Positions 24,801-31,079 are shown, counted from the stretch's first letter. The stretch is 32,000 nucleotides of DNA from Planctomycetales bacterium (GCA_022646745.1 CP060262.1:2700001-2732000), one strand, 5' to 3'. Made by a program: numbers and translations. The notes: generated by a model not told the origin, from the sequence alone.

Positions 24801-27800
24801 ACGGGCAACCTCTATGAGGAAGTGACAGTCAAGCCGATCCGGCTCGAACTGGCGATCAACGCCCCCGGTGGTGGCGGTTCTGCTGACCCGCCGCCGACCG
24901 AGGACTTCTCCCTCAACTTCGAAGAGATCAAGGTCACCTACGGCGAAACTGACTCCATGCGCATGGATGGCAACGGCGGAGCAATCTACGTTTCCTGCTG
25001 GGCCAGCTTCAGTGGTGAGGGGAACGAATATCCCTATGGCCGGATCATCTATGGATCCGGTGCATCCATCCAGGCAAGGCTTGATGATGGTACGGATGTG
25101 CCCGCGACCATAGAAGACATCAGGGACAATGGTGGGTCTTCCCAGATCCTGATTGGCCTGCTGCTTCCCGCGGTGCAGAAGGTGCGTGACGCAGCTGCCC
25201 GCAGTGAATCTCTGCAGGTTGAGATCCGCTGGATGGCTCCTGAGTCAATGGGCCGCAGCAGCTCAAGCTGGGATCCGCTGGTGCTTGACCTCTCCGGTGA
25301 TGGCACCCGCAAGCAGGGTGACCCGGATGCCAACCGATACGACTTCGGCAATGACGGTGCCATCCAACCTGGAAGTGGCATCAGCCAGACCAGCCTTGAG
25401 AACATCGAAGTCCATTATGTGGTTCCGGGTGAAGATCACAGCGCCGGCGACGAACATGAGGTCGAGTTTGACATTTCAATGGGTGCCGTTCACGACCAGA
25501 ACTCCGGCATGAGCTTTGAGGACTTCGTTGCCCAGTTCGAAGATGGACGCTTCGTCCTGCGATCTGGTGTGCCTGCGGTACGCAGTGCGGATGGTGGATC
25601 AGATATCGAATCATCGGACTACGAGATCCTTACCGACAGGGAGAAGAACACTGTCTATCTGAACATCAAGATGACAAAGGTGATGGTCACAAGCTACCAG
25701 AGCAGCGGCAGTTCAGCGGGTGATTCCTCCAGTGTTGAGTTCCGGGGATCCCTGAGATATGTGTTCCCGTCCTTATCTGCAGCCGGCACCGGTAATCTAG
25801 CAGGAGAGATTGATATCAAGCCGATCCGGCTGGAGCCGAAGGCTGTAGCAAGTAGCGGTGGAGTTGGCGACAGCAGTGACGACAGTTCAATGGACAGCCT
25901 GAGCACCATGGATGCGATGGTTTCCGGCGGTGGCGACGGAAGTGGCGGTGGCGGCGGTGAACCCGTCGGGATGATCGAGGAGCGCAAGAAGTGCTTCACG
26001 AACCATTTCGACTGTGACCTGCGCCAGTCTTCGCCGTCCTTCACCAGCGGCGCGATTGAGGTTGAGCTCACGCTGGCTGACATGAACGGCGATGGCCTGT
26101 TTGATGAAGCCGACGCCCTGTTGCTTGCCGATATGCTCAGCCGCAACGTGCAGTGGGCTGCTTCCGGTGCCGACGGTTCAGTCGTTGACAATCCGGAGGA
26201 CTGGGGCATTTCCAACCCTGAGTGCGTGGTGTCCGATGTCAAGGTCAGCCCGCCGCAGATGGCCCAGCTGACACTGGTCCTGAACTGGACAGTCAACACG
26301 GAAGCAATGAAGCAGCAGCTCGCTGCCCGCAGGGGTGCGAACGAGAGTTCCGCGATCAGCACCCTTCGGACCGTGGTCTCCGCGAACACGATGTACTTGC
26401 AGGACGGCAGCAATGGTCCATACTATGGAATTGAATTGGCGATGGAGCCGCTGTGGCATGACGCTGACCTGAGCCGGGAGCTTATGGGCGATGGCGAAGG
26501 TGGCACACGCGCCCAGGATTACAATTCCTCCCGTTCAAATACCGACGGTATTGCCGGGCCGGGTGGTGACATTAATGACCAGGATGGCGACATTGAGATC
26601 AAGCTGCTGGACGCCCGTCTGGAGAACTGGCGTGACAATGATGATGACGATGATGGGGTATGCGACCTGGTCGTCGACTTCGAGATTGACAACAGTACGG
26701 GTGTACCGCTGGACGGTGCCTTCCGCTTCAGCAGCAGCCTGACGCTTCCGGATGGCAGCTCGGTACCCGGCGTGATTGAGTACCAGGACGGAAATGACCT
26801 GATCCTGCGCAAGCGCCCGGGCCGCACCAAGTACTCCAACATCACGCTCAAGCGTGGTTTCATAGATGATGGCACCCTGATTTCAGTGGTGGACTTCCAG
26901 CTTGACTACGATGGCAATGACGAACAGACCCGCGGCTGGATCACAGAAGTTGTCCAGGGAAAGGGCTGGAAGCGTACGCTGACGATCAAGGAAATCACGA
27001 AGGACGGTGGTGCAGGCAAGTTCTCCTCGATTGACAACGCATCTGAGGAGAAGGAGCGTGGCATCACCATCAACACGAGCCATGTGGAGTACCGTTCAGT
27101 ATCACCGAAGCTCGTGGACGGTGCACCTCCTGTGCTGGTCTTCAGTGATCTAGTGATTGACGTGGAAGAGAACTGGAAGTCCCCCAGCACCAATGGTGAA
27201 GGAGAAGTGGCTTACCAACTGGTGTTTGCCGACGGTTCAACTAGTCCTGGCAAGGTTGAATACCAGGACGGGGATGATCCCATCCTGCGGAAGAGACCCG
27301 GCCGGATCAAGTTCGGAACGGCTTCCGGTGGAGGTGCTATTGCTTCAGGTGCCACCGGTGGTCGCAGCAGTGGCAGCGAAAGTGCGATCATCGCCGTGCT
27401 GATCGGCCTGCTGCAGGATGGCAGCCAGGTCAGCACTGAGCTTGAGATCCCGATTGATGCTGAGACGGCACGCTGGTGGGTCAATAACAAGATGAAGGAC
27501 AGCGCTCGGGACAGCAGCGTATCCGGTGGAAACAGCGGTGATGGATCTGACCAGGGCTGGGGCGGTGGTCCGAGGATGGTTATATGGCCGCCTGTGGACC
27601 CAACCAGGACTCCCGCTCCCGCGGGCCCGGTCCCGATTCCCTATCCGAGTATTGCGGGTGGAAATGGTGGCGGTGAGGGAGTTTCCTTCACGATAGAGAT
27701 CACGGGTGCAGGTGAGGGCACGGATGTCGATAGTGCATGGGAGACCTGCTCTGGAGGATCCCTGAGCATTGAGATATCCGATAGCAGCACCGGTTCCGAC

Positions 27801-31079: not shown

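Follow-up and report, generated by a model that had tools for sequence, protein, structure and literature searches.

A giant, putatively exported mosaic protein with partial tube and spike modules of contractile-injection type

In phage tails, T6SS and eCIS, the tube, spike and tip are viewed as parts of a single machine put together in the cytoplasm. The evolved Hcp, VgrG and PAAR proteins of T6SS and eCIS join CIS structural sequence and other material in a single chain, as does the giant protein described here, and both have Hcp, VgrG OB and PAAR-like motifs. The evolved proteins carry one complete domain, usually followed by a toxin, are made without a Sec signal and are encoded with their machine, whereas the giant protein has partial, multiple domains from several lineages, is predicted to be Sec-targeted, and comes with neither a toxin domain nor a machine nearby. 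More than one tube-fold module per chain is also found in phage T5 pb6 and in the gp27/VgrG hub with its two tube-like domains. In pb6 and gp27 the two domains are complete and close a ring in a tail assembled in the cytoplasm; the giant protein, known here from sequence, has at least ten incomplete modules with long linkers, and would be exported.

In size, signal peptide and internal repeats, the protein resembles the giant Sec-exported repeat proteins of PVC and other bacteria, with which it shares an Asp/Gly/Ser-rich character and FG-GAP, dockerin/TSP3-like and MopE-like motifs. Giant genes have been reported in PVC phyla, in a paper in whose main text neither Hcp nor tail proteins come up and which describes one novel helix as structurally similar to the VgrG spike (bioRxiv 10.1101/2023.11.21.568195). 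The present family is set apart by its CIS-derived modules and by its foreign snippets.

The gene, its orthologs and selection on its motif islands

The window, a 32,000-nucleotide stretch of DNA from a Planctomycetales bacterium, holds one ORF that opens at TTG 15789, upstream of the ATG at 15840 from which we count. An earlier note had flagged six elements of tube, spike-tip and spike type; these fall in the C-terminal third of the 5,079-residue protein, and all six lie where they had been placed, in frame 0 of this one ORF, with translations equal to the peptides quoted. The gene and the features of its N-terminal region are:

15840..31079, + strand: whole gene, encoding a giant, predicted exported mosaic protein; single ORF, 5,079 aa from ATG
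15840..15959, + strand: predicted Sec-type signal peptide, with basic n-region, 14-residue h-region and AIAAG c-region
15960..15992, + strand: Hcp beta-1-like motif YLKYEGIDGES, adjoining the signal peptide on its C-terminal side (regex match)
17547..17951, + strand: two pieces of a third tube type, VNESSYEILENGAGKFKVDIEG and EDLVIDEREMTTGADWDYR, with near-identical strings in P0005 and P0006

The Sec signal claimed earlier is borne out by an N-terminus that fits one, MAGFSAFFRTSREFLGHARIASLMAVMLFAFLGQSAIAAG, and no second hydrophobic run of at least 18 residues (TM length) occurs elsewhere in the 5,079-aa protein. The predicted signal is the first conserved island in a 3-way alignment and is unusually strongly conserved among orthologs; Sec export of the protein is predicted from these features. 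The motif that follows, which we take to resemble the Hcp N-terminus and which has no Pfam match behind it, reads Y(I/M)KLGDIKGES in the orthologs. P0005 and P0006, which share the strings of the third tube type, are themselves tube-type proteins.

The database copy, P0001, begins at a later Met and matches with 100% identity across 5,053 aa. Collinear orthologs have lengths of 4,049, 3,936 and 5,355 aa; two lie in GTDB MAGs (JAWLAZ01 and JAGRNT01), in synteny with ClpP and transketolase, and P0002 is a fourth ortholog. A metagenome scan gave no further orthologs, and a search with the N-terminal region gave one 190-aa fragment of 80% identity. Module number and order vary from ortholog to ortholog.

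Short motif islands are nearly invariant in protein and their synonymous sites are freely divergent. The orthologs L010 and L011 give a dN/dS of 0.083/0.389 (~0.21), and between the window and L011 the motif islands have pN 0.06 and pS 0.50, against pN 0.38 and pS 0.67 in the remainder of the gene. Purifying selection acts on the motif islands. Recent copying or ongoing gene conversion is rejected as their cause, since synonymous divergence is high both between orthologs (pS 0.46-0.50) and between paralogous island copies, which use different codons, including TCN/AGY serine switches.

The collage-like appearance of the gene, together with microhomology at junctions (TIKEITKDGGAGK between tube and EF-Tu sequence; RKRPG/RKRPD in P0085), might suggest a chimeric assembly, a pseudogene in decay, or gene fragments that were captured and passively accumulated. 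We give such a non-functional origin a negligible probability: the 15.3-kb ORF (58% GC) runs without interruption, identical DNA is present in nine contigs from eight metagenome samples, i.e. in independent assemblies, there are four full-length orthologs, and the ortholog dN/dS and the pN of the islands are low. The independent assemblies and the dN/dS already contradict an artefact or pseudogene, and the giant gene is real.

Partial modules of Hcp, tube, spike and unrelated families

Downstream of the N-terminal region the following features were located (elements 1 to 6 are those of the earlier note):

19971..23900, + strand: array of at least five Hcp-type modules with a period of ~270-300 aa (PF05638, TIGR03344, internal repeats)
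23553..23603, + strand: H-X9-DG motif HSGGVNVLMGDGSVHFI of DUF1559 pseudopilin-like proteins (TIGR04294, 34.8 bits, cut-off 19)
24660..24854, + strand: Hcp1-type segment with embedded C-terminal strand of tube type 2, GTGNLYEEVTVKPIRLELA
25785-25838: second copy of the tube type 2 C-terminal strand
26703..27098, + strand: gp19-type tube module A, aa 3639-3770, containing element 1 (Pfam 29-67/134)
26979..27104, + strand: EF-Tu-derived piece of 42 residues, aligning to EF-Tu 33-74, the switch I region
27207..27317, + strand: gp19-type module B, ending after the hairpin, an internal repeat of module A (element 2)
27612..27659, + strand: PAAR-like/DUF4150-like motif PAPAGPVPIPYPSIAG, motif only (element 3)
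27678..27917, + strand: N-terminal half of a second tube type, P0004-like (element 4)
28536..28580, + strand: short motif MFNPKEVSVDKSVPW, common to the CIS_tube (PF19266) segment of P0138 (string comparison)
29319..29726, + strand: gp19-type tube module C, the most complete, aa 4511-4646 (element 5)
30222..30452, + strand: RIRKRPDLLMQEWDSLIDE...NPLYE...ENPLYE, then GIVHRDIAARNILL; phmmer matches P0039, P0046, P0065, P0086, P0096, P0098 and P0136
30630..30872, + strand: gp5/VgrG-type OB fold, aa 4948-5028, with a ~14-residue deletion (element 6)
31008..31076, + strand: C-terminal tail FQTLSNVSRASHDAAMGSIRNMK; phmmer and alignment with P0151-P0154, P0022 and P0138

The multiple Hcp modules that had been reported upstream of the six elements are present: PF05638 reaches E 5.8e-31 (107.9 bits summed) and TIGR03344 96 bits summed, both above cut-off. 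Every stretch covers only 26-78 of the 129 PF05638 positions, coverage of TIGR03344 is only 38-93 of 167, and PDB Hcp chains align over 45-97 residues only (45-75 within the array). Hcp/TssD proteins are complete ~160-aa beta-barrels that follow their model end to end, and are signal-less cytoplasmic proteins encoded with TssB/C and a baseplate; neither description fits here, the genetic one as judged from the window and the ortholog flanks. Each module retains (R)DAASG(L/M)xTGKRQHKP...IDK(A/S)TPLL, and MopE-like DNDCD motifs and LLLPAVQKVREAA are interleaved among the modules. By position, the kept segment (TssD model 38-93) probably corresponds to the L2,3 extended loop and the following helix, an assignment that is provisional because numbering varies among homologs. 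Stacking of rings of B. pseudomallei Hcp1 depends on the L2,3 loop (PMC4650826). The Hcp1-type segment at 24660 aligns to residues 46-142 of Hcp1 (PDB 1y12) with E 0.008, and the strand embedded in it matches the C-terminus of P0004. The rest of the protein has FG-GAP, dockerin/TSP3-like Asp-rich repeats and MopE-like Cys motifs, which are typical of extracellular proteins.

In the C-terminal third, PF06841 matches three stretches with E 3.8e-19 and 69.3 bits (cut-off 28.2), the best of them covering positions 24-77 of 134; piece-wise scans cover 29-67, 24-76 and 28-77 of 134. TIGR02241 covers 29-79 of 141 at 54.7 bits, below its cut-off of 62.4, and the complete ~140-aa tube domain of the gp19 family, including its C-terminal strands, is not present. 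Module A has the N-terminal strands, hairpin and helix, its beta-6 region is deleted, and the EF-Tu piece replaces the last strand; hhalign against 16 full tube proteins gives a probability of 99.5 over template positions 32-169 of 176. Module C has a ~20-aa insert and lacks the last strand, and aligns with the same probability over positions 35-151 of 176 (with MAFFT, it was aligned to 17 tube proteins). In structure prediction, which the earlier note had proposed as a check, AF2 places elements in tube-like order in the first ~100 residues of module C only (mean pLDDT 52), and the two runs have mean pLDDT of 55 and 52; both are low-confidence, so no fold is demonstrated.

The strongest external match is that of the second-type tube segment, which in an exhaustive search of representative proteins has 72% identity over 77 residues (E 5.7e-27) to residues 14-89 of P0004, a 149-aa PF06841 tube protein whose gene adjoins a second PF06841 tube gene; the segment has more than 60 matches beyond P0004. 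The pieces of this family are out of order in the giant protein, with the C-terminal strand at ~aa 3004, the middle at ~aa 3727 and the N-terminal part at ~aa 3964. The short motif MFNPKEVSVDKSVPW alone has no statistical significance. The suggestion that tube, tip and spike are encoded here as such is not supported: all matches are partial, each with 30-45% of the family profile, and a tube-spike-tip stack does not fit an element order in which tube pieces are scattered.

At least ten tube-type modules in one chain, with their ring-contact loops kept, could instead be imagined to form stacked pseudo-hexameric rings with the C-terminal OB fold as tip. The protein would then be a Sec-dependent needle, a non-contractile surface spike or tube made of one or few chains without sheath or baseplate, which agrees with the absence of separate machine genes nearby. 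The T5 tail tube protein pb6 is a precedent for tandem tube domains in one chain. We hold this to be very unlikely, since no module is complete (the last strand is absent or has been replaced), several tube lineages are represented, linkers and inserts of 100-300 residues lie between the modules, and their number and order are inconsistent among orthologs. A gp27-type adaptor, a beta-helix and a real PAAR fold are lacking, and AF2 gives no confident tube fold.

Five of the six elements have statistical support, the exception being the PAAR-like motif. PF13665 gives this motif only 16.2 bits where the cut-off is 31 (E 0.011), and the match is therefore not significant and does not place it in the PAAR family; AF2 pLDDT is below 50 at this site. 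Its PVPIPYP string recurs in the ortholog L011 and in the fragment P0003, whereas L010 and P0002 have degenerate versions. The OB fold is identified by PF04717 (E 6.8e-8, 33.2 bits, cut-off 23.8), which covers only positions 46-75 of 75. With tblastn, the match widens to aa 4948-5028 of the giant protein, aligned to VgrGs from Aggregatibacter, Pseudomonas, Singulisphaera and Planctomycetia, to which the N-terminal strands align weakly; these alignments take in the OB fold and a few residues after it, and nothing more. The VgrG models TIGR01646, TIGR03361 and NF033848 match at positions 396-458 only, with 27-30 bits against cut-offs of 122-275. Neither a gp27-type hub nor a beta-helix was detected in the giant protein, which thus lacks the order of gp27-like hub, gp5 OB fold and beta-helix of a VgrG/TssI protein. 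What stands of the earlier description is a single Sec-signal chain with Hcp, two to three kinds of CIS tube and gp5/VgrG OB-derived sequence, an arrangement that the note had called unfamiliar and for which we found no description in the searchable literature.

Snippets of unrelated families are conserved as well as the CIS-derived ones. The EF-Tu piece (PDB phmmer E 1.7e-6; TIGR00485 positions 40-72 of 394, E 4e-7) is kept in all four orthologs, and may be subject to gene conversion from each genome's own tuf gene; at 29 bits against cut-offs of ~450-520 for EF-Tu models, it is no complete GTPase domain. A DUF1559 protein has a prepilin signal, a body and H-X9-DG within ~300 aa, and of these the giant protein has the 21-residue motif only (PF07596 positions 237-263 of 268), besides six internal copies of LLLPAVQ(K/A)(V/A)R, the DUF1559 N-terminal helix motif. 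The third such snippet is the kinase-like HRDIAARNIL. Kinship of IVHRDIAARNILL with tyrosine kinases was rejected (Pfam E 0.024), its motif being that of a small secreted family that also has RKRPDLL and NPLYE, and we treat the likeness as chance or an unexplained resemblance.

Genomic context and related secreted proteins

In agreement with what had been said of the surroundings, neither the ORFs of at least 300 aa in the 32-kb window nor ClpP is a sheath or baseplate gene, and no such gene is among the first genes downstream of two syntenic orthologs, as judged by synteny and gene size. The ortholog neighbourhood consists of housekeeping genes. The giant protein matches no PADLOC defence family, on which ground membership in a defence system was rejected, and Pfam scans found no toxin domain in it.

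Sequence that derives from Hcp, tube and VgrG proteins and passes the Pfam thresholds would also suit a specialised ('evolved') VgrG- or Hcp-type cargo, with the genes of its canonical T6SS or eCIS in another part of the genome. Several features make this extremely unlikely: the orthologs keep the Sec-type signal, docking would have to do without any full-length Hcp, VgrG or PAAR domain, no toxin domain was found, the orthologs lie among housekeeping genes, and 5,079 aa would probably far exceed the capacity in or on a tube.

Signal-like N-termini were found by a heuristic in 23 of 44 small tube-type matches. The stand-alone Sec-signal TIGR02241/gp19 proteins P0147, P0111 and P0070 have the same EYQDGxDxxLRKRPGRxKYxNITLKRG hairpin as the giant protein, a signal-like N-terminus and a site outside CIS loci. 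They are single complete domains of ~140 aa (P0147 and P0111 fill positions 3-141 and 2-139 of the 141 in TIGR02241 after a ~30-residue leader), whereas the giant protein has truncated versions in a 5,079-aa mosaic. P0147 has housekeeping genes as neighbours and no sheath gene. An extracytoplasmic population of tube-fold proteins exists, and we found no description of the function of these stand-alone proteins.

The motifs of the giant protein also occur in small Sec-signal mosaics (P0152-P0154, P0138, P0134, P0149, P0132 and P0038), of which P0152-P0154 are from a Nitrosomaritimum-type archaeon, on an archaeal contig. Like the giant protein, they have a signal peptide and partial matches to several CIS families per chain, with the tail motif or the NSSRSN, NPLYE and RKRPG motifs; at 200-800 aa, from unrelated organisms and with other motif combinations, they are not its orthologs. 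No CIS gene lies beside them on their contigs, which are short, and we found no annotation or literature on them. The RIRKRPDLLMQEWDSLIDE/NPLYE/GIVHRDIAARNILL module is found in small secreted proteins too, some with PEP-CTERM-like C-termini, and the FQTLSNVSRASHDAAMGSIRNMK tail, which has no PDB or Pfam family, is common to small Sec-signal proteins that also bear CIS motifs. The spacing of the tail SNVSRASHDAAMGSIRNMK is presumably that of the PrgI/MxiH C-terminus; a relation to T3SS needles was rejected, as a profile of eight tails found no PDB needle protein up to E 10, and HrpA_pilin matched one member with E 0.05. In P0003, EF-Tu residues 1-30 and the G3 motif follow each other in EF-Tu order with a short linker between them, and in P0132 residues 1-52 of HU adjoin a tube hairpin.

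These proteins bear on the idea that the islands imitate epitopes that are conserved on the surfaces of other proteins (Hcp, tube, VgrG, PAAR-like, DUF4157, EF-Tu and pseudopilin proteins) and, in the periplasm or on the surface, sequester whatever recognises these, be it effectors arriving by way of T6SS, eCIS or CDI, or an incoming tube at its open end. Selection acts on short peptides and not on whole folds, unrelated snippets are conserved as strongly as CIS ones, EF-Tu 33-74 in every ortholog among them, and the EF-Tu and HU pieces of P0003 and P0132 are of the kind expected. EF-Tu is bound by some T6SS and CDI toxins. The motif set moreover recurs in small Sec-signal proteins of unrelated organisms, one contig being archaeal, none of which adjoins a CIS gene. 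We nonetheless judge mimicry of this kind unlikely: PADLOC gives no match, at least two modules are near-complete tube folds by hhalign rather than bare peptides, and the EF-Tu piece lies exactly at the position of the tube's last strand and therefore could be a structural graft. The small mosaics lie on contigs short enough for CIS genes to be present at a distance.

A broader and more novel version, which we also rate as unlikely, makes the gene the largest of an undescribed class of Sec-exported 'motif mosaics' in bacteria and at least one archaeon, acting as extracytoplasmic molecular mimics. Members would retain the contact peptides or the most conserved peptides of Hcp, tube, VgrG, gpD, DUF4157, EF-Tu and HU, joined by low-complexity linkers, and could be decoys that capture effectors or cap incoming tubes, or might instead seed or cap a Sec-dependent assembly of tube-fold proteins outside the cell.

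A proposed extracytoplasmic role for tube and spike modules

The giant protein is most probably neither a fused tube-spike-tip device nor a component of T6SS or eCIS, machines that are assembled in the cytoplasm. Our preferred reading, to which we give an even chance, is that it is an extracytoplasmic mosaic in which modules of tube and spike origin were co-opted and their contact hairpins retained. The flagged region would be the C-terminal third of one functional gene whose product leaves through the Sec pathway; Sec export would put its site of action outside the cytoplasm, probably at the cell surface or in a matrix. Its building blocks appear to be degenerate descendants of CIS tubes of Hcp/TssD type, gp19/TIGR02241 type and P0004-like type, with one gp5/VgrG-type OB fold near the C-terminus. 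Parts of the folds would have been lost or swapped, and loop and hairpin sequences left almost unaltered. The kept loops and hairpins presumably derive from subunit contacts, which they form in genuine Hcp and, by extrapolation, in genuine tubes, and may now serve protein-protein contacts outside the cell, either in self-association or in binding free secreted tube-fold proteins.

Co-option as spacers predicts that cores are kept and loops decay; the opposite is seen, which counts against the preferred reading. Co-option also leaves the conserved EF-Tu, pseudopilin and kinase-like snippets unaccounted for, and likewise the EF-Tu and HU pieces in the related mosaics. The makeup of the gene is unusual and unexplained.

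The gene is conserved and under purifying selection, its product is predicted to be Sec-targeted, and the most conserved hairpins of the injection machines, presumably contact elements, are reused in it with no machine nearby. Together with the stand-alone tube homologs and the small mosaics, it points to a second, extracytoplasmic life for tube-fold sequences, of which we found no description in the searchable literature. Should these hairpins still have tube or effector partners to bind, the outcome would be either a surface structure of a new kind or a new way of passively resisting injection systems. Nature here also provides a clear example of short peptides, copied from the unrelated proteins EF-Tu, HU and pseudopilins, being under strong selection, which bears on the evolutionary reuse of protein fragments. 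In practice, mosaics of this kind will be annotated wrongly, as Hcp, VgrG or phage tail proteins, and so inflate T6SS and eCIS counts. The known carriers of the giant gene are a few uncultured wastewater bacteria, the samples with the gene include saline activated sludge (for example SRR12358675/6 and the ERZ273091xx/ERZ286552xx assemblies), and the secretome of activated-sludge granules is rich in gp19- and Hcp-domain proteins (PMC12019908).

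The giant gene and its neighbours

The window holds a single very long open reading frame (15789-31079, + strand). Translation from the ATG at 15840, its likely start codon, yields a 5,079-aa product; residue numbers below count from the TTG at 15789. The six tube, spike and tip elements listed by an earlier note all lie in frame 0 of this reading frame and translate to exactly the peptides quoted there. The N-terminal sequence, MAGFSAFFRTSREFLGHARIASLMAVMLFAFLGQSAIAAG, is laid out like a Sec signal of the cleavable type, hydrophobic runs of at least 18 residues are absent elsewhere in the protein, and, judged from its sequence, the giant is probably exported. 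G+C is uniform across the window (0.56-0.63), and the surrounding genes are these:

12778-14736, - strand: ankyrin-repeat protein (652 aa, signal-like N-terminus), adjoining the giant gene; nearly all ankyrin repeats, Pfam E 4e-75
Other window genes: three HTH-TPR regulators; GH3 hydrolase; CBM9 protein; esterase; ClpP; 626-aa protein with a lipoprotein-like N-terminus; GntR-aminotransferase; 1,153-aa protein with a dockerin
3' of these genes: transketolase, metallophosphatase, solute-binding protein

Bacteria associated with eukaryotes are the more typical carriers of ankyrin arrays. Neither the window genes nor the three downstream ones include a sheath, baseplate or AAA+ gene, which bears out the earlier remark that sheath and baseplate genes are lacking nearby. 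It is well supported that the giant is not part of a contractile machine, and we consider it very unlikely to be the cargo of a T6SS or eCIS encoded far away.

Upstream, the Cro/C1-type HTH + TPR (MalT-like) regulators are tandem paralogs: the window (12-3517) has two in full and only the TPR portion of another, and L002 (3205-7022) has three in full. Two methyltransferase genes lie just outside the window.

Partial domains, dispersed pieces and foreign peptides

The proposed motif set was largely confirmed. Within the C-terminal third, Phage_T4_gp19 (E 3.8e-19, three stretches) and Phage_base_V (E 6.8e-8) exceed their Pfam gathering scores, and the multiple Hcp modules described upstream are matched repeatedly by T6SS_HCP and TIGR03344. 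The PAAR-like element falls below threshold (PF13665, 16.2 bits vs 31) and is reduced to a short motif. Best supported is the second-type tube segment: when 1.84 billion representatives were searched exhaustively with HMMER, over 60 tube-type proteins matched aa 3966-4042, led by P0004 (149 aa, PF06841; 72% identity, E 5.7e-27), whose gene adjoins another PF06841 tube gene. Each family match spans just part of its model.

Model positions matched by the giant protein
Hcp: 26-78 of 129 (Pfam), 38-93 of 167 (TIGR03344); beats cut-offs only with stretches summed
gp19: 24-77 of 134 (Pfam), 29-79 of 141 (TIGR02241); TIGR02241 54.7 bits, below 62.4
VgrG models: 396-458 only; 27-30 bits vs cut-offs of 122-275

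Hcp chains in the PDB are matched over 45-97 residues. Ring stacking of B. pseudomallei Hcp1 needs its L2,3 extended loop (PMC4650826), and by model position the Hcp segment retained in the giant would correspond to this loop and the next helix, with numbering that varies between homologs. Profile alignment to 16 full-length tube proteins was more generous than the family models. It placed gp19-type module C (aa 4511-4646) on template positions 35-151 of 176, with the last strand absent, an insert of ~20 residues and the aWPxxWK motif retained as NYPTRWE. Module A (aa 3639-3770) aligned to positions 32-169, with the beta-6 region deleted and an EF-Tu-like peptide in place of the last strand; module B is cut short behind its hairpin. 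Near the C-terminus, the OB fold (aa 4948-5028) aligns to real VgrGs with a deletion of ~14 residues, and in this alignment a gp27 hub or beta-helix is absent. Two AlphaFold2 runs, on aa 3620-4075 and aa 4495-4660, gave mean pLDDT of 55 and 52, too low to decide the fold; in these low-confidence models the tube modules show a tube-like strand/helix order in their N-terminal halves, with pLDDT below 50 in the EF-Tu-like and PAAR-like stretches.

The pieces are also out of order. The C-terminal strand of the P0004-type tube, GTGNLYEEVTVKPIRLELA, occurs at aa 3004 and again at aa 3333, a middle piece, WKRTLTIKEITKDG, near aa 3727, and the N-terminal half at aa 3964-4043. Around aa 587-721 there are fragments of a third tube type, with matches to P0005 and P0006. 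Partial domains, dispersed pieces and the missing hub and beta-helix speak against a fused tube-spike-tip stack, and it is well supported that the giant is not one.

Foreign peptides are interspersed. At 26979-27104, 42 residues match EF-Tu residues 33-74 (switch I; PDB E 1.7e-6, TIGR00485 E 4e-7), including RGITINTSHVEY, identical to EF-Tu chains; this piece is joined to the tube piece at a common TIKEITKDGGAGK-like stretch and is kept in four of four orthologs. One H-X9-DG motif of the DUF1559 pseudopilin-like kind (23553-23603; 34.8 bits vs 19) accompanies six internal copies of LLLPAVQ(K/A)(V/A)R, a motif from the N-terminal helix in that family, each with different codons:

aa 665, 1491 and 1765: 17781-17801, 20259-20279 and 21081-21101
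aa 2178, 2482 and 3124: 22320-22340, 23232-23252 and 25158-25178

The DUF1559 family is abundant in Planctomycetota; the giant, for all these signatures, is itself no pseudopilin. It also has five D(Y/H)NSSRSN motifs, and an RKRPDLL...EWD...NPLYE module (30222-30452) that recurs in small secreted proteins. IVHRDIAARNILL, adjoining this module, resembles a tyrosine-kinase catalytic loop, and is kinase-like at only E 0.024.

Conservation and selection

DNA with 100% identity is present on nine contigs, which come from eight metagenome samples in Logan and ENA; six of these contigs include stretches of the giant gene. Among GTDB species representatives, scanning revealed two collinear orthologs, followed as in the window by ClpP- and transketolase-sized genes:

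L010: MAG AC1.30, gene 68-12217, 4,049 aa
L011: MAG 'UBP7 HKST-UBA03', gene 326-12136, 3,936 aa

The representative search added P0002 (5,355 aa, collinear blocks at 26-46% identity) and P0003, a fragment. Another fragment, P0155 (190 aa), has 80% identity; no more orthologs were found in JGI metagenome contigs, and the family is small. UBP7 MAGs have been reported from saline activated sludge (PMC8495973).

The L010 and L011 proteins are 87% identical, and with dN 0.083 against dS 0.389 the gene is under purifying selection. In the alignment of both with the window protein, 27 islands (at least 11/12 identity of the window to each; 466 columns) include Hcp loops, LLLPAVQ, the EF-Tu piece, NSSRSN, RKRPDLL and HRDIA.

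Substitutions between the window and L011
Islands: pN 0.06, pS 0.50
Gene outside islands: pN 0.38, pS 0.67

Paralogous motif copies within the window differ in codons, including TCN/AGY serine switches, and the motifs are kept in four of four orthologs while module order and number vary. Low pN with high pS, differing codons and motif retention together indicate that the peptides are selected, and are not recently copied DNA; for the EF-Tu piece, gene conversion by each genome's own tuf gene may be an alternative. That the giant is a functional, exported mosaic protein is well supported, and non-functional sequence is extremely unlikely.

The signal region (15840-15920) is itself among the best-conserved islands, 27 residues being nearly invariant between the window protein and those of L010 and L011, which are 52% identical overall. 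This is odd for a plain Sec signal, and it may be a specialised export or anchoring signal.

Related secreted proteins and possible roles

Many matches from the representative search appear to be Sec-signal proteins themselves. Of 44 small tube-type matches, 23 have an N-terminus that a simple heuristic rates as signal-like; these proteins and the mosaics below were picked by query similarity and are no measure of frequency. P0147 and P0111 match TIGR02241 at full length after a leader of ~30 residues; locus L059 (GCA_975970765.1, CDLULJ010000034.1) has two stand-alone genes of this family 8 kb apart, amid housekeeping genes and with no sheath or baseplate gene there:

4164-4682: P0147, gp19/TIGR02241 gene with signal-like leader
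12116-12655: second stand-alone gp19/TIGR02241 gene

Three small mosaics of ~400 aa each (P0152-P0154) have partial matches to eCIS_core (HELSH), the gp5 OB fold and Phage_GPD, together with the tail motif that ends the giant; the NCBI label of P0151, a close relative, gives a 'Candidatus Nitrosomaritimum' MAG as its source, and the P0153 contig also codes for an Alba protein. P0138 has gp19, OB and CIS_tube pieces in one chain, and is the middle of three adjoining genes for secreted Gln/Gly/Pro-rich proteins (L057 530-4012), its two neighbours bearing Hcp N-terminal motifs (VDMFLKIDHIKGEA...). P0134, P0149 and P0038 mix Hcp loops, tube hairpins, NSSRSN and NPLYE. P0003 (691 aa) contains EF-Tu residues 1-30 (E 1e-12) and then, in EF-Tu order, the G3 motif HVDMPGHADYV, a short linker replacing ~55 residues; P0132 (196 aa, signal-like N-terminus) has NPLYE and a tube hairpin, then HU residues 1-52 (E 6e-10). 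Fragments of abundant cytoplasmic proteins thus recur in secreted mosaics. Gp19- and Hcp-domain proteins were reported to be abundant in the secretome of activated-sludge granules (PMC12019908).

We infer that modules derived from contractile injection systems were co-opted to an extracytoplasmic role, in which retained hairpins would mediate protein-protein contacts. Co-option fails to explain the EF-Tu, HU and pseudopilin snippets, or why loops persist as cores decay, and for this reason we keep two rivals: a mimic or decoy role, which has a modest chance, and Sec-dependent tube assembly, which is improbable. The literature searched yielded no description of Sec-exported mosaics of injection-system fragments or of Sec-signal tube homologs. 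The giant is akin to two familiar kinds of protein, the giant exported repeat proteins and the fusions of injection-system structural proteins, and has a real chance of representing a class of its own.

Three shared motifs deserve mention. VVVRGWDPTEKK (16809-16844), near the giant's N-terminus, matches VRGWDPEKK of the archaeal mosaics P0152-P0154 and presumably resembles a gpD/VgrG hub motif. The extreme C-terminus, ..LSNVSRASHDAAMGSIRNMK (31008-31076), had no Pfam or PDB family match and is common to P0151-P0154, P0022 and P0138, small Sec-signal proteins with injection-system motifs from unrelated organisms; it might act as a signal for sorting or assembly. The RKRPDLL module may be a shortened derivative of a tube hairpin and helix, or a juxtamembrane-type motif: in P0085 it directly abuts a tube hairpin (LRKRPGRIRKRPDM), and in Cys-rich P0135 (CGVCGG repeats), with which P0150 and L060 9410-10375 are grouped, RIRKRPDLLMQEWDxLIDE...NPLYE follows a hydrophobic helix.
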